A stretch of DNA of 64,000 nt from positions 32,001-96,000 of the forward strand of contig CAVVUS010000040.1 of the NCBI GenBank assembly GCA_963751345.1, read 5' to 3'. Below the pieces are notes generated by a model that searched no databases, had not been told where the DNA came from, and worked only from the letters and a program-made list of their open reading frames with translations. How positions within the stretch are numbered: the stretch's first letter is position 1; every line of letters starts with the position of its first letter. This document shows, piece after piece, positions 4,879 to 61,174 of the stretch. Made by a program: the position numbers and the translations under genes. This stretch comes from an uncultured Chloroflexia bacterium. GTDB taxonomy: Bacteria; Chloroflexota; Anaerolineae; B4-G1; SLSP01.

Positions 4879-5553
4879 ATGGCTCGTTTCGACCGCTTGA
4901 CCGTATTGACGACGATGATCGACGTGGGGCTGGTCCCACTCTTCTACCACGACGACGTCGAGATCTGCAAGAAGGTGATTCACGCGCTCGCCGAGGGCGG
5001 CGCCCGCGTCGTCGAGTTCACCAACCGGGGCGACCTCGCGATGGAGGTCTTCAAGGAATTGGTGCCCTACTTCGCCAAGGCGGCGCCCCAGGTGATCATG
5101 GGAGTCGGCTCGATCGTCGACGCGCCCACCGCGGGGATCGCGATGTCCTACGGCGCCAACTTCGTCGTGGGGCCGATGCTCCACGCCGACGTCGCCAAGG
5201 TCTGCAACCGCCGCAAGGTGCCCTACATGCCCGGCTGCGGCACCGTCAGTGAGATCTCTGCCGCTGAGGAGCTGGGCTGCGAGATCTGCAAGGTCTTCCC
5301 CGGCACCCAGGTCGGCGGGCCGGGCTTCATCAAGGCCGTCGCCGCGCCGATGCCGTGGAGCAAGCTGATGCCCACGGGCGGCGTCTCTCTGGAGGAGGAT
5401 AACATCAAGGGCTGGATCTCCAACGGCGCCGTCTGCGTCGGCATGGGCAGCAAGCTGGTCCGCAAGGACTGGATCGCGGCGGGTGACTATGCCAAGATGA
5501 CCGAAGGCGTTCGCCAGGCCCTCCAGTGGATCCGCGAGGCGCGCGGAAAGTAA
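4879..5553 (+). CDS. eda: KDPG/KHG aldolase
   Basis: VEFTNRG, GANFVVGP, PGCGTVSEI, KVFPG, MPTGGV; AAGGAGG RBS. Confidence 0.9.
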   Translation: MARFDRLTVLTTMIDVGLVPLFYHDDVEICKKVIHALAEGGARVVEFTNRGDLAMEVFKELVPYFAKAAPQVIMGVGSIVDAPTAGIAMSYGANFVVGPMLHADVAKVCNRRKVPYMPGCGTVSEISAAEELGCEICKVFPGTQVGGPGFIKAVAAPMPWSKLMPTGGVSLEEDNIKGWISNGAVCVGMGSKLVRKDWIAAGDYAKMTEGVRQALQWIREARGK

Positions 5554-5584
5554 CAGATTTCCGGGCGAGGTGACGGGACTATCT

Positions 5585-6654
5585 ATGGACACTATGACAA
5601 GCCACGAGCGCTTTGCGCGTATGTACGCGCACCGGGAGGCCGACCGCGTGCCTGTGATCGATTCACCGTGGGGTGCGACGATCGAGCGATGGCACCGCGA
5701 GGGCATGCCCGAGGACACGAACTTCGTCGATTTCTTCGACCTCGACAAGATGGCGCACATCGGCGTCGACAACAGCCCCCGCTACCCCGCCAAGGTGGTC
5801 GAGGAGACCGACGAATACGTGATCACCACGACGGGCTGGGGCGCGACGCTCAAGAACTGGAAACACATCGCCTCGACCCCCGAGTTCCTCGATTTCAAGA
5901 TCGACGGACCGGATGCCTGGCAGGAAGCCAAAGCGCGCATGACCCCCACCCCGGATCGCATACCGTGGGACCACCTCAAGGCGAATTACCCCACCTGGAA
6001 AAGGGAGGGGCACTGGATCGTCGGGGGGCTCTGGTTCGGCTTTGACGTCACGCACTCGTGGACCGTCGGCACCGAGCGGCTGCTGATGGCCTTGCTGGAC
6101 AATCCCGAGTGGTGCGTCGATATGTTCAACCACTTCCTCGACGTCAACATCGCGCTGCTCGACCAGGTATGGGACGCCGGTTACACCTTTGACGAGGTCA
6201 ACTGGCCGGACGATATGGGCTACAAACAGAACCAGTTCTTCTCGCTGCGAACCTACCGCAAGCTGCTCAAGCCCGTGCACAAGCGGGCCGTCGACTGGGC
6301 ACACGCCAAGGGTGTGAAGGTCCGCCTCCACTCGTGCGGCGACGTCCGCCCGTTCATTCCCGAGCTCGTGGAGATCGGCGTCGACGCGCTGAATCCGCTG
6401 GAGGTCAAGGCCGGGATGGATCCCGTCGCGATCAAACGGGAGTTCGGCGACCGGCTCGTCCTCCACGGAGGGATCAATGCCGTGCTGTGGGACGACAGGA
6501 GGCGATCGAGGCCGAGATGCGCCGGGTCATCCCAGTGGTCAAGGAGCAAGGGGGCTACATCTTCTCATCCGACCACTCGGTACCATCGGACGTGAGCCTG
6601 GAGAACTTCCGCACCATCGTGGAGCTCGCCAAGGAGCTGGGAAGCTACGACTAG
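5585..6654 (+). CDS. Uroporphyrinogen decarboxylase/MtaA-like family protein; frameshift near 6497
   Basis: [38 protein letters not shown] in the second frame. Confidence 0.8.
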
Positions 6655-7475
6655 ACGGTGACACAAGTCAAGTGCCCGGCACCTTTCAAGCGTGCCGGGC
6701 ACTCTGGGAGAAAAAGCCTCTGAGACGCTACGCCTGCGGTGCCAGCGACCTCGGCAGCCACCGCGGCACCGACGATCCCGGCCTCGTTCAGGAGCTGCGC
6801 CGGAACCACCTCGGCCTCGACGGTGAGGATCTCAGCGAACTTCGACATCTTCTGACTGGCCCCACCACCCAAAATAAAGAGATCCGGCCAGAACAGCGCC
6901 TCAATGCGCTGCAGATAGCGGTTGAAACGTTTCGCCCAGTCGCGCCACTTGAGCGAGTCACGCTTGCGTGCCGCATCAGACGCCTGCCATTCCGCCTCCA
7001 GGCCGTCCATCTCGATGTGTCCTAACTCCGTATTGGGGACGAGCACACCGTCGGTAAAGAGCGCCGTGCCGAGGCCCGTGCCGATGGTAATGATGAACAC
7101 GACACCGTCGCGCCCGCGCCCGGCGCCGAAGCGCATTTCAGCAATCCCGGCAACGTCGGCATCGTTGAGCACGCGCACAGGACAACCCGTGGCCTCTGCA
7201 AAGATCCCGGCAGCATCTGTGCCGATCCAGGACCGATCAACGTTGGCCGCGGTCCGTGCCACACCGTGCTGGATGACCGCAGGGAATCCTGCGCCAACGA
7301 GACCGTTCCAGTCGAAGTGCTTCGCGACCTCGCCGACGACCCCGGCAACATCCGCCGGTTTTGCGCCGTCAGGGGTCACTATGCGATATCGCTCGCCGAT
7401 CATCTCGCCCTTCTCAGTGTCGACAGGCGCACCCTTGATGCCGGAGCCGCCTATATCTATTCCCAGGATCTCCAC
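6651..7475 (-). CDS. ppgK: Polyphosphate/ATP glucokinase (ROK family)
   Basis: [42 protein letters not shown]; GTG start after AAGGAGG. Confidence 0.85.
6671..6703. repeat. REP-like doubled palindrome between convergent genes
   Basis: AGTGCCCGGCAC-ctttcaagc-GTGCCGGGCACT. Confidence 0.75.
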
Positions 7476-7580
7476 GCACTTGCCTCCTTCTGGGTCCATG
7501 ATGGCTCGACGTCCGCCGATTGGCGTCGACATCAGCATGTAACCCGTGTCGAGCCCAGTATATTCAACGAGACCACCAAG

Positions 7581-7619
7581 TCAAAAAAGACCCCCCGAGT
7601 CAGCGACCCGGGGGGTTTG
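7581..7619 (-). terminator. Intrinsic terminator of the RRM gene
   Basis: Minus strand CCCCCCG..CGGGGGG stem followed by TCTTTTTT. Confidence 0.75.
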
Positions 7620-7644
7620 TGCACACCTGAGAAAGGACGTGAGA

Positions 7645-7995
7645 CTACCAGTCCCGGCGACCGCCGCCGCCACCACCACCGCCACCGCCGCTACCGCGAC
7701 GCTGGCCACGGCCACCACCACCGCCGCCACCGCCACCCCCACGGCCGCCCTGCTGTCGTGGCTGAGCTTCGTTGACTCGCAGGTTACGACCGTCGTGCTC
7801 CTTCTGATCCAGAGCCTCTATCGCGGCCGCACCTTCTTGCGCGTTGGGCATCTCTACAAAGGCGAACCCGCGGGAACGCCCCGTATCCCGATCCGTGATG
7901 ACGTTCACTTCAGCGACTTCGCCATAGGCCTCAAATAGCTCGCGCAGTTCGTCCTCGTTTGCCTGATACGACAGATTACCGACATAGATCCTCAT
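7645..7995 (-). CDS. RRM (RNP-1) RNA-binding protein with Gly-rich tail
   Basis: IYVGNL (RNP2), RGFAFVEM (RNP1), poly-Gly C-terminus. Confidence 0.95.
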
Positions 7996-8065
7996 CTCTC
8001 ACCGCGTCCTTTCAGACTTCAGAAATACTGTAGCCGCGACCGTCACAACTTACGGCTCACCTTCT

Positions 8066-8093
8066 ATTGTACACGTAGATTCAGTTTCTGCAA
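8066..8093 (-). promoter_or_regulatory. Promoter of the RRM gene
   Basis: TTGCAG-16-TACAAT. Confidence 0.5.
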
Positions 8094-8244
8094 CTCGGAA
8101 TAACCAACGGGCCCAATGCTCACTCTACCGACGCTTGACTGGGTGGCAAGCCGAAGGCCAGAGGCCGGCCGACAGTCGACAGTCGAGGCGCCTTGGCTTC
8201 TGCCCATCATGAGGTAGAATCATAACCCCGTGAGGAGGTGATCC

Positions 8245-9871
8245 GTGACAACCAAATACATATTCGTCACCGGCGGCGTGGTCAGTTCTCTCGGGAAAGG
8301 CATCACTGCTGCATCATTGGGACACGTCTTGAAAGCTCGTGGCCTGAACGTCTCAATTCAGAAGCTCGACCCCTATCTGAACGTCGACCCCGGCACGATG
8401 GCGCCTTACCAGCACGGTGAGGTCTTCGTGACCGAAGATGGAGCTGAGACCGATCTCGATCTGGGACACTACGAGCGGTTCATAGATGAAAACCTGGGCA
8501 AGCTGAATAACGTAACCACCGGCCAGGTTTACAACGAGGTGATCACGCGCGAGCGCAGAGGCGACTTCCTGGGCGGCACAATCCAGGTCGTCCCCCACGT
8601 CACAAACGAGATCAAGCGCCGCATCATCCGCGCGGCGCAGGAGCTGAAGGCGACGGTTGCCATCACCGAGATCGGCGGGACCGTCGGCGATATCGAGGGA
8701 CAGCCCTTCCTGGAGTCGATCCGGCAGATGCGCAACGATGTGGGACGCGAGAACGTGCTCTACATCCACATCACGCTCGTGCCCTATCTCAGCGCAAGCG
8801 GCGAGTTGAAGACCAAGCCAACGCAGCATAGCGTGCGCGAGCTTCGCGGCATGGGCATCCAGCCGGACGTCATTGGCCTTCGATCGGACCTCCCGATCGA
8901 CCGGGAGACACGGGAGAAAGTCGCGCTCTTCTGCGACGTTGACAGCGAGGCCGTCATTCCACTCCTCACGGCGCGCAGTATCTATGAAGTCCCACTGATG
9001 CTCGAAGAACGAGGGTATGGGCGATCTCGTCGTCCGACGGCTCGGCCTTACGCAGATGATACAACCGCCACTTCTCGACGAATGGTCAGCAGCCATAGCC
9101 AAACTCAAGGCCGAGCAGCCCAAAGTACGGATCGCGCTAGTGGGTAAGTACGTTGAGCTCCACGACGCCTACATGAGCGTGCGCGAGGCCCTGATTCACG
9201 CCGGTCTGTATCACGACTACGAGATCGATATCGACTGGGTGCACAGCGAGGATCTGGAGCGAGGCAAGAGCCAGGATCGCTTGCTCCAGGCTGACGGCAT
9301 TGTGGTGCCCGGCGGGTTCGGCTACCGGGGCATTGAGGGCAAAATCGTGGCCGCCAGGATTGCGCGGGAGAACCGGATCCCTTACCTGGGGCTCTGCCTC
9401 GGCATGCAGGTTATGTGCATCGAGCTGGCTCGCCATACCCTCAACAGCGACGTGCCGAACAGCACCGAATTCGAGCCAAAGACCGCCCATCCCATCATCT
9501 CCCTGATGCCGGACCAACACGCCATCGCCGACATGGGCGGCACAATGCGCCTGGGCAGCTACCCTTGCCAACTCACACCCGGCACGAAAGCACGGGCAGC
9601 CTACGGCACGGATGAGGTCTTGGAGCGCCACAGACATCGCTTCGAGTTCAATAACGCTTACCGCGACCTACTCCACGAGGCAGGGCTAGACTACAGCGGC
9701 CTATCGCCGGACGGCAGGTTGGTCGAGATCTCAGAGATGAGGGATCACCCGTGGATGGTCGGTAGCCAGTTTCATCCCGAGTTCAAGTCGCGGCTGCAAC
9801 GCCCCCATCCGCTCTTCAGGGATTTCGTGGAGGCGGCGATCGAGCGAAAGAAGGAGAAAGAGGGGGCCTAG
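8245..9871 (+). CDS. pyrG: CTP synthase; frameshift near 9017
   Basis: [40 protein letters not shown] across two overlapping ORFs. Confidence 0.95.
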
Positions 9872-9890
9872 CGGCCGTCGTTCGCTTCCC

Positions 9891-9921
9891 AGCCTCCCTC
9901 CCCCGGCGGGGGAGGGAGGCT
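9891..9921. terminator. GC-rich hairpin between convergent genes
   Basis: AGCCTCCCTCCCCC-ggc-GGGGGAGGGAGGCT; no U tract. Confidence 0.6.
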
Positions 9922-9931
9922 GCATCCCGAG

Positions 9932-10843
9932 CTATTCCGCTAAGCGTACCTCGTACTTCTTCGCCATGAAGTCCGGGTAATAGGACTCCTTCGCGCGACG
10001 AAGGCCGGGCTCCCCGAGGTCCTGCTCCATGCCGATGTGGGTGGCCTCGCCCTGCCATCGCTCGGCGTAGGACTTGGTCATCATCGGGTAGATCCCCTTG
10101 AACTCAGGGTTAGCCTTTTCCACATGCATCACGGCCGTGCTCTCGTTCAGGAGCTCGCCCAGCGCGATGGCCTGGACCTGGCCCTGGACGAGGAGTGCGC
10201 CGCCATCCATCCCGAGGGCGTCGTAGTTGTTCATGACATCCAAGATGCCCGCGAACTCGTGCTGGAGGCTCAGGTCGTCCTCGCACAGCCGCTGCTCGCA
10301 CCAGACCTCGGCCAGGGCGATGCACTGCGGGACGAGGTCGGCCGTGATAGGCTGGTATTCAAACCGGTAGTAGCGCATGAACTGGTTGATGTGATTACGC
10401 TTAGCGCTGTACTTCCGGCCAGGGAACTCCGCAAGGTCCTCGGTCCGGTAGACGTAATCGAAGTGGTCGCGCGTCTCGGTCGTCGTGAACCGCTCGTCGC
10501 CATCCACCTCGTCGGCCAGCCGCTGTCCGGCCCGGGCAATCACCGGCGCCTCGACACCCCGCTCGTTCCTCATCCACCGGAGAAAGCGCTCTGCCACATC
10601 AGCTCGCGGCGCAGACCCGATAGGCGGGTATCCGAAGACACTGCCTTCCCGCTCATTGGCCACCAGGAGCACAAGATCGTCGCAGATCGACCATTCGTAC
10701 CGGTAATGGGATCGCCAGAGATAGAAATTATTGAACGTCAACTCCGAGGTCACGGTCTGGAACTGCCAGATCCTCGGATGCAGCACCTCGCGGTCCTCAA
10801 GACCGAGGCGCTTGAACTCGGGAAAGATTGGAACGTCGCCCAT
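9932..10843 (-). CDS. DUF2156 / aminoacyl-phosphatidylglycerol synthase C-terminal-like (GNAT) protein
   Basis: SELTFNNFYLW, DYVY..GRKYSAKRNHINQF, HVEKA, EQDLGEPGLRRAKESYYP. Confidence 0.85.
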   Translation of the reverse strand: MGDVPIFPEFKRLGLEDREVLHPRIWQFQTVTSELTFNNFYLWRSHYRYEWSICDDLVLLVANEREGSVFGYPPIGSAPRADVAERFLRWMRNERGVEAPVIARAGQRLADEVDGDERFTTTETRDHFDYVYRTEDLAEFPGRKYSAKRNHINQFMRYYRFEYQPITADLVPQCIALAEVWCEQRLCEDDLSLQHEFAGILDVMNNYDALGMDGGALLVQGQVQAIALGELLNESTAVMHVEKANPEFKGIYPMMTKSYAERWQGEATHIGMEQDLGEPGLRRAKESYYPDFMAKKYEVRLAE

Positions 10844-45410: not shown

Positions 45411-45574
45411 TGCTCCTTCTCCTTCGGAGACCCCGTGCCCATTCTCTCGCCCGAGAGGGGGCCCGAGTCCCAAAAACTGTCAGCCCTTGCCAGTCACTGC
45501 CTGACGCAGTATAGCGCGTTCCATCCCGGAAGGTACGCGTTCACCTACGCAGGGTCGCTGGTACCGCGACACCT

Positions 45575-45608
45575 ACCTTCCGGGTTGCTGAGGAGCAACC
45601 CGGAAGGT
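45575..45608. repeat. Perfect 15-bp inverted repeat downstream of the A2M gene
   Basis: ACCTTCCGGGTTGCT-gagg-AGCAACCCGGAAGGT; extra CCCGGAAGGT at 45525. Confidence 0.8.
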
Positions 45609-45678
45609 CCCACAACGCAGGTGCGTGCCGCTTTACCGGCGCAGACGGCGGTGCCCCGCTGGCACTTCGCCCTGTCTC

Positions 45679-48600
45679 CTACTCCCCGCCCACCACCGTC
45701 AGCGTCAATGGTGCTGACCTCCGCCGCGGTGCCCGGGTTATAGTAGTCGTATGCCGTGCTCGCCGGCGTCTGCGCCACCAGCGGGAAGGACGCTCGCAGA
45801 CGATAGCTGAAACTGAGCGGCTGCTCTGCTGTCAGGTTCGTGACGTAGAGGATGATCTGGCGTCCCGTCAGTTCGTACCGCTTGACCTGCGCGTAGGGAT
45901 AGTCCTCGGGCACGTCCTGGAAGCGGGCGACCAGCCGGTCCAGATCCTCGGTCTCCACAGTGAAGCCCGGCGGCAACCCCAGGTCGATGATGGTCTGCTC
46001 GGCCGAGCTGCCCGGCTCGTTGAGGCTCACGCTCACGTCCACGCCCACCGTGTCGTCGACCGCGAGCTCGGTCCGGTCGTAGCTTACGTCGATCGTCACG
46101 AGGTCCTTGGCCGGAACCAGGTCGGGGTAGTCGCTCAGCCGGTCCCAGGGCAGGTAGTAGTCGGTCGCGACCTGGTACATCAGGTTGCCCTCGCCCTCGA
46201 TCGCGATGCCCACCTCCACGTCGCGGCCCACCGGCACGTCGTCGTAGACGACCGACTGCACGACGTCGAAGGTCTCGGGCGTGACCCGAACGGTGCGCGT
46301 CTGCCCGCCGTCGAGCGTGATCGTGACGGTTGCGTCGACGTTCTCCGCGCCGGAACGCACGCTCTCGACGAAGGCCTTGAGCGCCATCACGGTCGCCGAC
46401 GTCGTCTCCCACGTGCCGAAGCTGTCCTTGCTGCGGACGAGGTAGGTGAGCGCAGCGCTCGCCAGATCGGGCTGGCGGCCCGCGCGCAAGAAGGCCAAGC
46501 GCCGCGGAGGCCGTCGTCTCCAACCGCCCGCTGGTGCCATAGCCGCCCATATAGGTCTCGCGTCCGGCATCCCAGAAGGCCGACTCGCCCTCGCGCTGCG
46601 CCATCCCGGCGAGGCGGGCGAGCACGCCCTCGGTGGCACCGGTGATGCCGCCGGTCTTGACGTCGACCGCGACGAGCGCGTTGGCCACCATCGCCAGGTC
46701 GTAGGCCGTCTCGGCCTCTGAGGCGTTCTCGCGCAGGAAGCTCGCCCCGCGCTGGGTCGCGGCATCATCCGCGTAGCCCGCGTCGGCCAGCCCCCAGACG
46801 ATCCACGCCGTCACCGGCACCCGGCCCGTCAGGCCGGTGATGCTCGTCTCGTGGAAGCCCTCGACACCCTCCCAGGAGCCGTCGCCGTTCTGGTGGGCGA
46901 TGAGCCAGTGGGCGACCCGTTGGATGAGCGCAGGATCGACGTTCGCCACGCGACTCATGTCGCCGAACTCCTGCAGGCCATAGGCGGTGAGCATCGGGTC
47001 GGCCGGCGCCTCGCCGAAGAGGCTGAAGCCGCCGGGGTCGCCGTCGACCTCGAACGTGGTCAGCCGCTGGTAGCCGAGGTTGATGTACTCCTCCGCCTTC
47101 ATCTGCACCTCGGGCGAGGCCTGCTCCGTGGTCTTGAGGTAGTCGAGCACAAGTATGTTGGGATAGGTGGTCGACGAGGTCTGCTCGAAGCAGCCGAAGG
47201 GCATCCGCAGCAGCGCGTCGAGCCCCTCCACCACCTGGCTGACCACGCCGGGGTAGATCTTGACCGTCAGCCGCTGGGTGCCGGCGATCGCGTCGCCGGG
47301 GACCTGCACCGGCACCGCCGCGGGCACCGTCGGGCTCAGCTTGTCGGAGACGGCGAAGCGAAGCTCCTTGCCGTCGGGGTAGACCCGCACGTCCTTCTGG
47401 ATCGCGTCGGACATCTGGCTCCCGTACGCCGTCACCTTGAAGGGCTGCTGCCCGAAGGCCAGCGCCTTGATGCGGAAGTAGACGACGGTGATGTCGTTCG
47501 ACGCGATGGTGATCTCCTTCTGCGCGTCGTCGACGAGCTCGAACCACGACGCCTCGGTCACCTCGAGGCGGACCGTCTGGGACTCCGGCAGGTAGTTGTA
47601 GACCGCGACCGGGACAGCGATCTCGTCGCCGACGGTGAGCGAGCCGGGGAGATCGAGGTCGATGAAGAAGTCCTGGAAGACGCGCAGCGAGCCCGTGGCG
47701 CTGCCCAGCCGTCCATCCTGCGAGGAGGCCAGCGCTGCGATGCGCCAGGTGGTGATCGAGTCGGCCACCGGGACGTCGACGGTCAGGTGACCCTCGGCGT
47801 CGGTGATCTCGTCGGGCAGCCAGAGCATCGTCTCGGGGAAGAACTGGCGCAGCCGCGGCTCGGCGGTCTGTGCCACGCCGCTGCCGGCGGCCTCACCGGT
47901 TGTCGCGCCGTCGTTCAGGAGTCCGGCGGCCTTCTCCGCCACGGCCGTAGGCAGAGCCGCGCCAAACGCACGTTCCAGCATCGGCGGGGCCATGGCCTCT
48001 CTCCACGACAAGGCCCTGGTCAAAAGCGTCCGCGGCGCCCATCACGCCCATCCCACGCCCATAGAAGCCCAACCCGAAGACGGGCACCAGCCCCACCAGC
48101 AGCAGGATGGCTACCATCGTGGACGAGACGCCCGCAAGCGCGCGTTTCTCCCAGATCAGGCTCGTGCCGCGCAGGAGGAAGGCCAGCGGGAAGAGCAGAA
48201 TCGCGATCAAGCCCACGATGAGCACAGGGTCCGCGGAAGAGACGTCGCCGTGGTCGACCGACCAGCCCATCACGCCGCCCACGACGATGGCGAGCGGCAC
48301 TACCGCGAGCAGCAGGCCGATCGTGAGGTCCTTGCGCCGTATCGCCGTCACGATCAGCACGATAAGACCCGCGACCCCGAGCAGGCCAAGCGATAGGACC
48401 ACGACCGTCGTAAGCACCTCCTGCGTCCGCCAGAAGACATTGTCCGCCAGCCAGACCAGGCCCAGGAGGCTCAGCCCGGCAAGGATCACGATCGCCACAG
48501 CGAGGCCGAGGCTTTTCCAGAACGCCCGCGCGCGGGCAGCAGCCACGCCGCTGAGCACCACCGCCGCGAGCGGCAGGAGGACGAAGGCGCCGAACGAGAC

Positions 48601-50679
48601 CGTGGCGAGCGATCCGTAGAAGGCCTGCTGCCGCGCGTAGGCGCGGTCCATCGCCTGCTCGTGCGAGTTGGCCTCCAGCGAGAAAGGATCGGCCTGCGGG
48701 ATCGCCGAGGCAAGCGCGGCCTTGCCCGCGCCCTCCTGGGCCGCCTGCAGCGGCGCAGGGCAGGTCGTACCGTCACCGGTCGAGCACGGCTGCGAGACCA
48801 TCTCAGGGATACTAAACCCGTGCAACTCGTACTTGGGCTCCAGGAGCTCCTGTTCCAGCATGAAGTAGAGCTTGGCGAAGCCGGGGTCCTGCTCGGCAAG
48901 GGCGAAGACCGACTCGTCGACGATCGCCAGCCCGACGGCGGACTGCACGCCGCCGCCATCTGCGCCGCTGACCTGGACGTCAAGCGTGCCGTCGTCGCCG
49001 GGCCGGTAGACGTCGGCGCCCGCGATCAGGCCGACCGAGAGATCACTGGCCTCGTCCACGACGACCAGGCGCGTGTCGCGGACGATGGCGCCGCTGGACA
49101 GGATCTTGTACGCGTGCAGCTCCAGCGTGCCGTAGAGGTCGGGCGTGAGATCCACCGCGACCTCGGCGTGACCGTCGGCCACGTCCACCGCGCGGGTGCT
49201 CACCGTCTGCCCCTCGCGGATAATGTCGAGGTAGACGGTGCCGCGCTGCTGGGAGGTGAGGATCGTGAGCCCCATCGTGTCGCCCACGCGGTAGATGGCG
49301 CCGTCCGGGCGCAGGAGCACGCTCTCGCTCGCGCCGGTGCCCTCAAAGGCGACCTCGCGCTGCGCCGTCGTGCCCGCCGCGTCGCGGGCGGAGATACTCA
49401 TCGAGGTATAGGAGCTGCTCGGCGTGAAGCGCAGCTCGGCCAGCCCGTAAGTGCCCGAGTGCGCCGTCAGCGTCTCGCCCGTGTCGTAGAGCGTGACGGT
49501 CACGTCCGCCTCGACGGGCGCGCCGTCGGGCGTGCTCGTCATCACGTAGAGGACGTTCTCGACGCCCTCGCGGAGCAGGCCGCCCTCGGGGATCGCGTCG
49601 ATGACCAGCGCGTCGCTCGCCACGGGCAGCGAGAGCTGCCCCACCTCGGTGTGCTCTGCGAGATCGGTCACGCGCGCCTCGACGTAGAACCGCGCGCGCC
49701 CGTCCTCCAGATCGGAGCCGGCGATGTAGGTGGGCAGGTCAAAACCAAACGTGAAAGCGCCCTGGTCGTCGGTCACCCCGTCGATCGTGACGGCGACGAC
49801 ACGCTCAAAGTCGAAGGTATACCCTTCGATCGCGACCGTGCCGCCTGCCACGTCCTTGCCGAAGAAGTAGCGCGCGGAGAGCGTGCCCTCGACGTGGTCG
49901 CCGGGCCGGTAGAAGTCGCGGTCGGTCGTCAGCGTCACGTCGAACTTGGGCAGCGTGTAGTGCTCCACGGTCACCGTCTTCTCGGAGACCGTGTCGCCGA
50001 GCGTCGCCGTGATCTTGTAGGCGCCGCTGTTGACCTCGTCGGCGAGTTGGAAGTCGGCGGCGGCCACGCCGTACGCCGAGGTCGTCAGCGTCCGGCGGAA
50101 GACGGTATTGCCCTTGCCGTCGGCCACGGCGATCTCGACGGAGCTGGTTGCCCGCGGGGACGCGGTCGAGGCTGCCCAGCCCCAGCACGCGGATGTGGAT
50201 GACCTGGCCGGGCTGGTAGAGCGGCTTATCGGTGGAGACCAAGAGGCGATAGCTGCGCACCAGCGTCACCGGCTTCTCCAGCCGGTCGGACCCGAGCGAC
50301 GAGGTCGTCTCGACGACCAGCGTCTCCTCGGTGGCGGCACGTCCATGACGACGTCATCGGGCACAGTGAAGCTGACGGGCAGCGTGCCGTCCGCGTTCGT
50401 CTGGCCCTCGAAGAGCGGCGCGCCGGCCCCACCCTCGGTCGGGCGAAGCAGCACCTTCACGCCCGCGCCGGAGAGCGGCGAAGCATCGCGGCTGTCGCGC
50501 ACGACGACGCGCATAGCCGCCGTGCTGCCGGGCACCAACTGCGATTGGCCCAGAACAATGGTCTCGTGCTGGCTCAGACGCTGGGGCAGCGTCTCATTGT
50601 AGACGACGAGACCCACGAGACTGAGGGCAACGAGAACGACGAGGGCGAGTCCTACGGCTATCCAACCTCTGCGGGACAT
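45679..50679 (-). CDS. Alpha-2-macroglobulin family protein with N-terminal anchor and internal polytopic TM insertion; several frameshifts
   Basis: STDKPLYQPGQ, HYTLPKF, AIVDESVFAL, RQFFPETMLW, DSITTW, thioester PFGCFEQT, YDYYNP; AAGGAG RBS. Confidence 0.9.
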
Positions 50680-50905: not shown

Positions 50906-51627
50906 CTAAACCCCGCGGAGTGCGACGTGGTCGATCCAGCGGCTGGCGCAGGCAGCCATATCCAGCAGCTCAGACGTCGGATAGGGGGCGGCACCTTCCA
51001 GGGCGGGATCGAGAGTGCGTATGCCACGGAACTGCTGCAGCACGTACGAGACTGACTTCCGATCCCCGCACTCAGCCAGCCACTGCGCGATGGCCTCGAC
51101 ATCGTCGCCGTCCAGGAGGCCCGGGACGACAGTCGTGCGGAACTCTACTGTGACGCCGCTCCGGCAGAGAAGGTCAACCGACGCCGCCACTTGGCCGACA
51201 TCCACGGACTCGACGTCCGGAGAGACGCGAATACTTAGTCCGGGGCGCTTTCACGTCCATCGCCACGTAGTCTACGACGCCGGTGTTGAGGAGGTCTGCC
51301 AGGCGATCGGGATGCGTGCCGTTGGTATCGAGCTTGACCGCCACACCCCGGGCACGCGCCGCCGACAGGAACGCGGGGAGCCCCTGCTGCAACAGAGGCT
51401 CCCCGCCGGTCACGACGATGCCGGTCACCTTGCCTGCCCGCCGCGTGAGGAAAGCCAAGACCTCCTCCGGATCAACGGCGGGCAGCGAATGAGGCCTGCA
51501 ACACCAGGTCGGCATTGTGGCACATAGGACATCGGAAGTCACACCCCCCTGTGAAGAGAACCGTGGCGATGTGATCGGGAAAATCGATCAGCGACGTCCG
51601 CGCCCAGCCTCGGAGGTCGATCTCCAA
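50906..51627 (-). CDS. nrdG: Anaerobic RNR activating enzyme (radical SAM); frameshifted
   Basis: SLIDFP..GCDFRCPMCHN, TGGEPL, KLDTNG, EFRTTVVP. Confidence 0.88.
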
Positions 51628-58019: not shown

Positions 58020-58921
58020 TCAATCCTCCACTAACAGCGTATTCGTCCAGGCGCGCCTACCCACGCCGTCCTCGATCTCAATGTAGGCATAGGGCCAGTC
58101 CTCCGGCAATGCAAAACTCGCCTGCTGCAGTGTGCTGCCGTCGAAGCTGCCCAGGCGCTGCCCCTGCGAGCGCGGGCCTACCAGCCGGACGAAGCTCACG
58201 GGCGATGTCTCGATGGACACCTGACCGTCGTCGACCCTGATCTCGTGAAAGGTAGGGCCCGTGGTGCTGTAGAAGCGGCCCGCACGCAGGCTTGCCATGA
58301 TAGCCTCCGCGGTCACCGAGGGCGCCTGGACCATGACCCAGCCCCCGTTCCAACCGGGATGGGAGGTTGTGATGTGGGCATCGTCGGACGCGAACGCCAG
58401 CGTACGCGGTGCCTCCTTGAGCATCATCTCCCAATACGGGCGCCCGTCCCCCTTCCCGTTCAGCCATTGGCAGACGTAGTTGTAGATCTCCACGCCATCA
58501 AATCCCCATCTGACCGTTTCCGCACAGGAGTTCCCGGTCCAGTAAGGGTGTGCAAGGATGAGCAAACCGCCCTGGGCGCGCACAGCGGCGAGCGCGTCGG
58601 GGAATCCCATCTGCCTCTGTATACCGGTGAAGGCCCCCAGACAGACGACGTGATAATAGCCGCTGTGCTCGTCGAATCCGTCCAGCTCGATACCGTCGAG
58701 CCAGAGCAGGGGCTGTCTGCACCACCGCCGCCCAGCAGCACGGAAGACGAGGCCCAGTGATCCGTCCGAAACAGGAAGTCATAGCCGGCACCGCTATAGG
58801 CCCGCTCGAGCTCCGCGAAAGTCAGCCCCCCATCCGAGACCGTGCTGTGAATGTGCGTGTTCCCCTTGTACCAGTTGCCCTCTGACAGATAGCGCGGCGA
58901 CGCCTGCCGTTCCCCGCTCAC
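58020..58921 (-). CDS. PHP-like (CehA/McbA-type) metallohydrolase; frameshifted
   Basis: WYKGNTHIHSTVSDG, TDH, LAHPYW, GVEIYN, SDDAH. Confidence 0.8.
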
Positions 58922-59913
58922 CGCGTCGCCTCGTTGCGCCAAGGGTCTGCCGCCAGGAACGCATGGAGCATCGCCCTCTTCTTCTCGACATCCACGCCGA
59001 TCGCGTGTCCGGCACCGTAGTCGATCAAGATGAACCCTCCGTCTGGCGTCGCCCACCGATCCAGCAACAACTCGGCCTCCTCACGGATCTCGTCTGCGCC
59101 CTTGAACGGCAGCGTATGCTGGATGTCGCAGAGCGAGGCAAAGCAGATCCGTCCGCGGAACCGCTCGCCGATGTCCTCGATGCCCAATGCCCTTGGCTGT
59201 TGTAGTTCGATGATGTCCAGCCCGATGTCGATCAAGCTCTCGATGATGCCATTGACCTTGCCGCAGGAGTGCATCCACACGTGCCAGCCAAGGTCGTGGA
59301 CTGCGTCGAAGATCCGTTTGTAGCGAGGCTTGAAAAAGGCATCCCACATCGTGGGCCGGACGAAGACATTCTGTTGCGTACCCCAGTCATCGGTGAAGGT
59401 GAAGCCGTGGATGCGATCGCCGAAGCGCGAAGCGATGTTCTCGATGATGCGCAGATCAACCTCGACGATGCGGTCAGCCAGCGCTGCGATACGTTCGGGC
59501 TCCAGATAGAGATCGGTGAGCGTGGCCTCGAACCCGTGCAGCGCGTGCATCCGCTCGAAAAGAAGCATGAAGATGCTCGTGGCCACGTACTGGCCCTCGC
59601 TGCCCTCGAAACGTGCCGCCATCCCCTCATAGAAAGCCGGATCGTCAGGATCGGGCCATGCGTAGTTCTCCCAGGACGCCCAGTCGGCTAGCGGATGTCC
59701 CTTCACCTGGCCCATGTTGTCCATCTCCGAGCGCGCCCAGGTGCACCCCCATTCGTCCACCGTCTCGCGGTAGCGATGGTCGCCGGTCCCGATCTGGTTC
59801 CAGCCGACAAAGTGCACGTCGTCGACGCCGAGCGCCTCGAGGTGCAGCGGCAGGCGATCCGGCCGTCGGAACTCGATGGCGCGGGTCATGACTTCGTAGG
59901 ACGACATAGCCAT
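58918..59913 (-). CDS. Uroporphyrinogen decarboxylase/MtaA-like family protein
   Basis: DEWGCTW, TDDWGTQ, MHSCG, DIQHTLP, GGFI; AAGGAGG RBS. Confidence 0.85.
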   Translation of the reverse strand: MAMSSYEVMTRAIEFRRPDRLPLHLEALGVDDVHFVGWNQIGTGDHRYRETVDEWGCTWARSEMDNMGQVKGHPLADWASWENYAWPDPDDPAFYEGMAARFEGSEGQYVATSIFMLLFERMHALHGFEATLTDLYLEPERIAALADRIVEVDLRIIENIASRFGDRIHGFTFTDDWGTQQNVFVRPTMWDAFFKPRYKRIFDAVHDLGWHVWMHSCGKVNGIIESLIDIGLDIIELQQPRALGIEDIGERFRGRICFASLCDIQHTLPFKGADEIREEAELLLDRWATPDGGFILIDYGAGHAIGVDVEKKRAMLHAFLAADPWRNEATR

Positions 59914-60030: not shown

Positions 60031-61174
60031 CTACGCGGCGGCTCGCTCCGCCCAGTCGTTAAACGCGTCGAGCATCGCCAGGAAATTGTCGTACTTCGTA
60101 CCGACGGCCACAGAGTGCGTCGTGCCGAAGATGTAGCCGCTGCCGGGCGCACCGGCGCGCATCGCCTCCGCCACGTCATGGCGCACATCCTCGGGCGTCC
60201 CGGAAACCAGGTTTTCAACACTAGCCCCACCCCAGAGCGCCAGCCTATTGCCATATCGCGCTTTGACCTGGGCCATGTCCATACTTGCCGAGGCCTGGAT
60301 CGATTGGTACGCATCGTACCCCGCCTCGACGAACATGTCGAGCAGCGCCCAGTTGTTTCCACACGCATGCTTGAGCACGCGCAGCCCGTGCGACTTGACG
60401 CTCGCCACCCGCTCCTTGATCGACGGGAGGCAGACGCTGCGGAACATGCGCGGCGAAATGAACGGGCCCGCCGTCGCGGCAAAGTCCGTGCCCCAGAGGA
60501 CGCCATCCGTGCCGGGCCTGATCATCCACGGGTCCTCAAGATTGCCGAGTCGCGTGGCCTGCGCAATGGCCGCGGACACGACCTCAGGCTGAAGCGCGTA
60601 CATCATCAGGCCGTGCTCCATCCCACCCAGCAGGATCATTCCCGCCTCGCCACCGCTCGGGCCGAGGATAAAGTGGCTGTCGCCGAGCGCCTCGACGATC
60701 GGATCGACCGCCTCGAAGATCGAGGGGTCCGGCGGCACCGGGTCCACGTCGAGCGGGAAGTCTTCGCGGCAAGTGAGGCTCGGGCTGCGCCACGAGCGTC
60801 AGATCGGCGGTGACGTCCGAGTACTTCCACACCCGGCCGTGCGTCCGCCGCCCACGTGTTGGCGTCGATCCGGCGGACACTGTCGGGCACGTAATCCGCG
60901 GCGGGGCGACGCTGCTTGCCATCGCGCTCACGTTGACGACGTCGATGACGTCGAGCTTGCGATAGAGCTCGATCGTGTCCTCTTTCCAGCTCTGGACCAC
61001 CTCGTCGCGCCGGCCCTCCCAGAACGCGATCTGGCACTTCGCCTTCGCGCGCAGGTAGGTCTCGTGGCCCAGGATCCGCTCGACCGTGTCGAAGTCGATG
61101 GCGAAGAACCCGATCGGCACGCGGTCGACCGGCTCGTGGGCCAGCGCCCGCTGTACGCGCTCCTTACCGTTCAT
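60031..61174 (-). CDS. Uroporphyrinogen decarboxylase/MtaA-like family protein; frameshifted
   Basis: MNGKERV..DRVP, KHACGN, LWGG, GYIFGTTHSV. Confidence 0.8.

Follow-up and report, generated by a model that had tools for sequence, protein, structure and literature searches.

A gene on the minus strand of a 64,000-nt stretch of contig CAVVUS010000040.1, from an uncultured Chloroflexia bacterium (the whole stretch is called the window hereafter), encodes an alpha-2-macroglobulin (A2M)/thioester-containing protein (TEP)-like product that carries a block of six hydrophobic helices next to its bait-equivalent linker. The gene lies at 45679-50679 (-), comprises ~1666 codons (~1650 residues) and is readable through five frame breaks. 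Hydropathy, charge bias and AlphaFold models show the predicted product to be a polytopic membrane protein, with the macroglobulin (MG) domains MG1-MG6 on one side of the block and the MG7/CUB/thioester domain (TED)/receptor-binding domain part on the other both placed outside. Sequence comparison shows that many Anaerolineae (Chloroflexota) share this conserved design in intact genes. We consider it probable (roughly 0.6) that the protein acts at the cell surface as a protease trap, which the six helices staple to the membrane; the architecture and the topology come from the analyses below, whereas the trapping function and the purpose of the staple are what we infer.

The six-helix membrane block occupies 48058..48603 (-), with support from translation, AlphaFold and loop charges. 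By the AlphaFold helix limits, its transmembrane (TM) helices are TM1 (48538-48603), TM2 (48445-48513), TM3 (48343-48405), TM4 (48253-48318), TM5 (48160-48213) and TM6 (48058-48114), all on the minus strand. The original prediction had placed six hydrophobic segments near 48060..48610, and translation of 48049-48885 (-) reproduces them exactly in a single frame, the same frame that encodes the Pfam domain A2M_BRD. Structure modelling of the window block, together with 35 aligned relatives, likewise returned six helices, with a mean predicted local distance difference test score (pLDDT) of 84 and values >90 over most helices: a long helix (residues 74-118 of the model) runs into TM1 and is followed by five more. 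In a 1034-residue model of the relative L002, the block is again helical. Immediately upstream, alignment delimits a conserved helical segment with an N-S-H motif (48604..48756, -), which AlphaFold models as helices 44-60 and 74-118, the latter continuous with TM1.

Net loop charges in 36 sequences are +2.5 (loop 1-2), -1.1 (2-3), +1.7 (3-4), -1.1 (4-5) and +1.3 (5-6). Because they follow the positive-inside pattern, both ends of the block are placed outside. This loop-charge topology agrees with an N-in signal anchor at the N-terminus of the protein, where the presence of an anchor had also been claimed beforehand: a hydrophobic helix is encoded at about 50599..50664 (-), after the start codon at 50679, with five residues ahead of it that include two Arg (helix 3-29 in the L002 model). 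It is a plain hydrophobic helix and we found no lipobox, the first 40 residues of the window protein being devoid of Cys. The idea that an even number of helices would return the chain to the outside, giving a membrane-embedded A2M, is thus borne out by the six-helix AlphaFold bundle, by the loop charges and by conservation.

Within the helices, no polar residue is conserved in the 36 sequences. The conserved positions of the block are two prolines, an R-R-K-D motif behind TM3 and, in 32 out of 36 sequences, an Arg at the end of TM5. The predicted cytoplasmic loops measure ~8, 8 and 15 residues, and the cytoplasmic N-terminus of the window protein five residues. Fold searches with the block gave a best E of 0.67 (Foldseek) and a best Z of 10.3 (VIA-align), the latter to designed helical bundles and within the range common for helical bundles; the modelled block matches generic helical bundles only, and a known membrane fold cannot be named for it. 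A complex prediction for the N-terminal helix and the six-helix block scored 0.00, which is no verdict and counts neither way.

The original prediction had proposed a search for A2M homologues with the same insertion. Amongst longer proteins, 695 matches were obtained, the best 120 of which are 1445-1676 aa long and, where the source is named, are of Anaerolineae/Chloroflexota origin; one of them belongs to a cultured species, Longilinea arvoryzae (P0117). In a hydropathy scan, all of these 120 best homologues had a hydrophobic cluster at residues ~680-880 together with CFEQ at about residue 1150, and the co-occurrence of the two is therefore beyond chance; 119 of the 120 also have an N-terminal hydrophobic segment, the sole exception being N-terminally truncated. 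In GTDB species representatives, 612 out of 641 pattern-matched stretches encode relatives, and all 60 loci kept are titled Chloroflexota. We inspected 43 complete loci of other genomes: 38 are uninterrupted open reading frames (ORFs) of 1602-1673 aa, two are uninterrupted but run off the contig, and three are broken (L001, which is the closest relative, L029 and L056). Short-read contigs of other sequencing runs span 48382-48599 and 48351-48501 of the window with no difference. The 120 homologues, the intact frames in relatives and these matching contigs rule out that the block is a misassembly or a separate gene, which had been named among the findings that would overturn the prediction.

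In a class sample, 57 out of 301 genomes match a profile of the block with its flanks; in 40 of them, including the window's own, the match spans the block (coverage judged by eye from match ranges), while in five (G551, G567, G568, G660 and G680) it covers the flanks only. A block-only profile run over a phylum sample of 401 genomes scored strongly in the window genome alone. We do not read this as absence of the block elsewhere; it reflects low sensitivity, since the search with flanks included found 40 in 301. Against 1.84 billion representative sequences, the block-only profile yielded 66 matches, one being the known member P0014 and 65 new. Of the latter, 61 either align by BLAST to family members through A2M sequence beside the block or are contained entirely in it, and are thus family members or fragments. 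In the other four (P0153, P0158, P0168 and P0170), the match is in the block only, with unrelated sequence alongside. By this exhaustive profile search, the six-helix block is shown to occur in no other protein family that can be found with it. A word-based search for stand-alone block homologues of 117-375 aa gave none at E <= 0.01, which is weak evidence, and a Protein Atlas search gave no usable match.

Two of the four block-only matches, the small proteins P0158 (247 aa) and P0170 (297 aa), look as if the N-terminal anchor of the family had been joined straight to the block, with the MG domains missing; either they are remnants or they may represent a seven-helix form that stands by itself. 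Eight block-bearing genomes of one GTDB family (L090-L097) carry divergent copies (E 1e-20 to 1e-29) with open frames of 1014-1538 aa, and the 1.6 kb fetched on their downstream side yielded neither a thioester motif nor a TED match.

Behind TM6 lies a hypervariable linker rich in Ala, Gly, Glu and Met (47862..48057, -), in which one of the frame breaks, at 48000, is located. Compared over 35 relatives, the linker measures 45-69 aa and has a mean pairwise identity of 22.6%, whereas the block reaches 29% and the flanks 80-85%; no other part of the protein compared is as little conserved. Its pLDDT of 24-36 in the 1034-residue L002 model indicates disorder. The solved eukaryotic relatives (CD109, human A2M, TEP1 and C3) re-align directly after the linker; for human A2M, the alignment resumes at residue 729, the end of its bait. 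Because human A2M aligns again there, right after the linker, we regard the linker as the bait equivalent, with the block, an insertion in the bait-region domain, just upstream, in keeping with the original prediction that the block sits beside the bait region. A hypervariable and predictedly disordered linker would thus stand at the position homologous to the protease-sensitive bait.

The remainder of the gene has the features of the A2M/TEP superfamily, i.e., a series of MG domains, a TED with CxEQ and a C-terminal MG8, all detected with Pfam (cut-offs passed). The reading frame begins with the ATG at 50679 and ends at the true stop, 45679-45681; tblastn aligns residues 1-1644 of P0001 over three frames, and the true stop and C-terminus were found in a shifted frame by three-frame translation against L001, L002 and L004. 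The stop-to-stop frame 47893-50265 (-) includes MG2, MG3 and A2M_BRD; the frame 45738-48041 (-) includes the A2M domain (MG7) and TED_complement; and the frame 45545-46810 (-) includes A2M_recep. MG2 and MG3 (PF01835 and PF17791) extend over 49750..50245 (-), MG2 being split by a frame break near 50145, and the bait-region domain A2M_BRD, the MG5-MG6 part (PF07703, E 4.4e-14), over 48898..49314 (-). After the linker, the A2M domain (MG7; 47562..47831, -; PF00207, E 3.4e-24) opens with a conserved R-L-R-Q-F-F-P-E-T-M-L-W stretch. The TED (46494..47246, -; PF07678, E 6.7e-38) contains the thioester motif CFEQ, intact as originally claimed: the DNA, read from 47192 to 47181 on the minus strand, is TGC TTC GAG CAG. 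The A2M receptor-binding (MG8) domain (45719..46003, -; PF07677, E 4.9e-13) completes the protein. None of the bMG families of Pfam was found among the pieces of the window gene.

Frameshifts had been noticed in the window gene before, and five were located (~50339, 50145, 48000, 46497 and 45717). At 50339, the window is short of one base: the ORF frames change there, and run X2 provides a contig with an additional C behind 50339. At 50145, the window has one extra base by the ORF frames, and a contig of run X3 omits one letter at that position. The third break is an extra base at 48000, in the linker after TM6; the tblastn frame changes between 48038 and 47977, a contig of run X3 omits one letter there and the DNA alignment with L001 agrees on the position. 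The fourth (46497..46498), in the TED, lies outside the informative contigs and is placed by a tblastn frame change between 46498 and 46479 and by the L001 alignment, while the fifth (45716..45717), 12 codons before the true stop, is placed by the three-frame comparison with L001, L002 and L004 and by the L001 alignment. As L001 is itself interrupted, its DNA alignment is noisy and was used only where other evidence agrees. Neighbouring genes are also broken in comparison with close homologues: a gene for an NrdG-like radical-SAM activase (50906-51621), next to which NrdD is intact, has two breaks, and two further genes, at 58023-59050 and at 60037-61174, have one apiece. The window assembly seems to carry many single-base indels.

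The five breaks could instead be real, the window copy being a decaying pseudogene whose protein is no longer made here even if relatives make it. Five breaks within 5 kb, the interruption of L001, L029 and L056 as well, and four other A2M-domain genes in the genome that might compensate would fit with decay. However, the translated pieces between the breaks are still 65-81% identical to P0001, three of the breaks match single-base differences in independent contigs that restore the frame, and breaks are about as frequent in the neighbouring genes; the interrupted L001 lies on a contig of >1 Mb, consistent with a long-read assembly. Because breaks 1-3 coincide with single-base contig differences and the neighbouring genes are broken too, the five breaks most likely represent base-calling or assembly indels, as far as sequence comparison can tell, and we consider a pseudogene quite improbable.

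The window neighbours of the gene are NrdD, the broken NrdG-like radical-SAM gene, two aldo/keto reductases and an acyltransferase. The earlier remark that no PBP1C gene is seen nearby holds for the annotated window neighbours, the direct check being confined to the window. Across 33 loci, no neighbour is conserved; the best cluster occurs in eight of the 33, the clusters themselves being without individual annotation. The block-bearing A2M gene has no operon partner. Profile searches found one copy only of the membrane block in the window genome. The same genome includes four further A2M-domain genes with open frames of 744-1546 aa, none of which matches the membrane-block profile (G000 contigs C8:43942-44214, C30:5252-5521, C27:39239-39508 and C48:11231-11494).

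Amongst solved structures, the window protein matches CD109 (E 4.8e-68), human A2M (9.4e-67), TEP1 (7.1e-52), C3 (7e-35) and YfhM (5.3e-9); judged by these similarities, it is far closer to eukaryotic TEPs than to YfhM of E. coli. Like the window protein, the eukaryotic TEPs (CD109, A2M, TEP1 and C3/C4/C5) have MG domains, a TED_complement with CxEQ and A2M_recep; a flexible bait (or ANA domain) lies in them directly before the conserved F-P-E-T-W stretch, where the window protein has its bait-equivalent linker. Eukaryotic TEPs are secreted, CD109 being anchored by glycosylphosphatidylinositol (GPI). They have no TM helices in the bait region, in contrast to the window protein with its six-helix bundle and N-terminal anchor.

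Bacterial type I A2Ms are described by Zouhir (2018) as CxEQ thioester protease traps that sit on the outer side of the cytoplasmic membrane and occur in lipoprotein or signal-sequence forms. With these (E. coli YfhM/ECAM, Salmonella SaA2M), the window protein shares the CxEQ thioester motif and, putatively, a bait region before MG7/8. Type I proteins have a lipoprotein anchor, a gene that pairs with PBP1c and a bait without helices, whereas the window protein has no lipobox and no PBP1c neighbour, and its similarity to YfhM is weak (E 5.3e-9, as above). The type II A2M MagD of Pseudomonas is likewise an A2M-like trap and associates with the inner membrane; it lacks a thioester and a TM segment of its own, in contrast to the window protein, which has a built-in anchor and no conserved operon. 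The absence of a lipobox, of PBP1c and of a conserved neighbour, along with the weak YfhM similarity, rules out that the window protein belongs to type I or type II as these are described by Zouhir et al. (2018). Archaeal A2M homologues have signal peptides and other architectures, according to Makarova et al. (2021). We found no paper on TM helices in an A2M bait region or on A2M in Anaerolineae, in literature searches that did not extend to most subscription journals. As far as these searches reach, the architecture is undescribed, so that it had not been anticipated in the way the original prediction allowed for; the sequences are already in databases under generic names.

The thioester codon was read in 40 loci from 39 other block-bearing genomes of the class sample. 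It is TGA in 21 loci (21 genomes) and TGC or TGT in 11, and no motif was found in the fetched stretch of the remaining eight. The TGA loci (L065-L084 and L104; e.g., L065:8142-8144) specify G-[TGA]-F-E-Q in frame. Five of them were fetched with their full flanks, and in these the same frame stays open for 477-502 codons past the TGA. Translated with TGA as U, L065 gives a complete protein of ~1620 aa with a single U at position 1144. A 6-bp hairpin starts 11 nt past the TGA in all 21 loci, with two of its pairs changed on both sides (covarying), while it is absent from 12 Cys forms, the window gene included. The spacing in the minimal selenocysteine insertion sequence (SECIS) of E. coli is likewise 11 nt. 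None of the SECIS families in Rfam had a match in 16 of the TGA loci. SelB scored over the cut-off in all five selenocysteine-form genomes checked and in three of five Cys-form genomes, and below it in the window genome and in G673.

The TGA loci thus look like a selenocysteine ("selenoester") form of A2M, to judge from codon, frame and hairpin. The window gene does not belong to it, with TGC at 47190-47192, no hairpin and no SelB over the cut-off in its genome. In a tree of 33 rows (12 selenocysteine, 21 Cys), the character state requires two changes, and the window protein falls in a supported all-Cys clade; nine selenocysteine rows (<350 residues fetched) and two Cys rows (L085 and L099) were left out of the tree. 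One genome (G579) carries both a TGA and a TGC copy of the block-bearing gene (L076 and L103). Gene callers end the selenocysteine forms at the TGA, so that database entries are truncated to ~1150 aa. No paper on a selenocysteine A2M was found within the reach of the same literature searches.

The trap that we favour would work as follows. Anchored by its N-terminal helix and by the six-helix staple in its middle, the MG ring would lie flat against the membrane, and the bait would thereby come to stand near the surface. Cleavage of the linker by a protease would set off the A2M/C3-type rearrangement known from other members and the attack by the thioester, and the N-terminal fragment, fixed by seven helices, would retain the protease-bound C-terminal fragment non-covalently. 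Anaerolineae are said to lack an outer membrane, which could otherwise keep a soluble or periplasmic A2M in place. Because no polar residues are conserved in the helices, a role of the block in anchoring or positioning appears preferable to transport or catalysis.

The compact bundle and its want of conserved polar residues would equally suit a block that serves biogenesis or assembly only, either by splitting the export of the ~1600-residue ectodomain into two Sec-translocated halves or by driving oligomerisation in the membrane. Both large halves have to cross the membrane, and eukaryotic A2Ms act as dimers or tetramers, which counts for oligomerisation. A single N-terminal signal nevertheless suffices for the export of bacterial type I A2Ms of comparable size, and the position of the block is conserved exactly at the bait, which suggests a link to bait function; we therefore hold a mere role in biogenesis or assembly to be very unlikely.

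Several points weigh against the membrane-stapled trap. A second disordered and variable stretch precedes the block (pLDDT 39-45, L002 residues 586-633) and could be the real bait. If the linker after TM6 is the bait, its cleavage leaves the thioester-bearing fragment without a covalent link to the membrane, and the advantage of the staple is then not obvious. The topology is deduced from hydropathy, charge bias and AlphaFold. The contigs that restore the frame are single, of low depth (2-3.5) and 2-3% different, coming from close relatives and not necessarily from the window strain, and the corroboration they provide is confined to breaks 1-3 of the five. Six helices are more than anchoring requires, the conserved motifs in the cytoplasmic loops (R-R-K-D and the Arg at the end of TM5) may mean that there is a cytoplasmic partner, and a sub-branch fused to an anti-sigma domain suggests signalling.

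The last three of these points would be explained if the block were a transmembrane relay, in which cleavage of the bait or the thioester-driven rearrangement outside alters the packing of the helices and is read in the cytoplasm by a partner on the conserved basic loops, the protein being a sensor beside or instead of a trap. The distant block-bearing proteins P0172 and P0176 begin with a zf-HC2 anti-sigma zinc finger, and in the metagenome locus L108 the block-bearing gene (6001-10284, 1427 aa) sits 70 nt downstream of an extracytoplasmic function (ECF) sigma-factor gene (5221-5931). An N-terminal domain of this kind with an ECF sigma gene upstream is as in ZAS-type (zf-HC2) anti-sigma factors; the window protein lacks the domain. 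By Pfam, the L108 form has MG2, BRD and A2M domains and no TED match. The zf-HC2 sub-branch has a very long Thr/Pro/Ala-rich linker along with its six-helix block, and it is devoid of a TED. None of the papers found by the literature searches reports an A2M ectodomain on a known anti-sigma factor. Proteins of this sub-branch may be protease-sensing anti-sigma factors.

The anti-sigma forms are, however, a small and distant sub-branch (two of the 66 profile matches plus L108), and what a partner could read is little, both in the window protein, which has no cytoplasmic domain, and in its 120 closest homologues: a few N-terminal residues in the cytoplasm and short loops (~8, 8 and 15 residues). 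No neighbour is conserved beyond the cluster in eight of 33 loci, no polar residue is conserved inside the helices, and the basic loop residues are equally demanded by the positive-inside rule alone. Signalling is, hence, a weaker rival than the trap, and a relay in the window protein strikes us as doubtful. We are similarly hesitant about a broader conception, in which the family constitutes a complement-like surveillance device that traps and reports proteases, a cut in the bait being relayed via the block (to an ECF sigma factor in one sub-branch), with many members armed with selenocysteine; this is conceivable but rather unlikely.

A2M, TEPs and complement are textbook thioester proteins that are soluble or anchored by lipid or GPI, and a bait region that crosses the membrane six times would be a new way of deploying them. 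It would provide a natural case of a bait mechanically coupled to a membrane domain and a testable model for surface defence against proteases in bacteria said to be without an outer membrane; the presence of the gene in the cultured Longilinea arvoryzae (P0117) makes bench work possible. The ECF sigma link of one sub-branch suggests protease sensing. If selenocysteine replaces the thioester Cys in the TGA forms, these would make up a selenoprotein family that is undescribed as far as our searches show, and a natural experiment on thioester chemistry.

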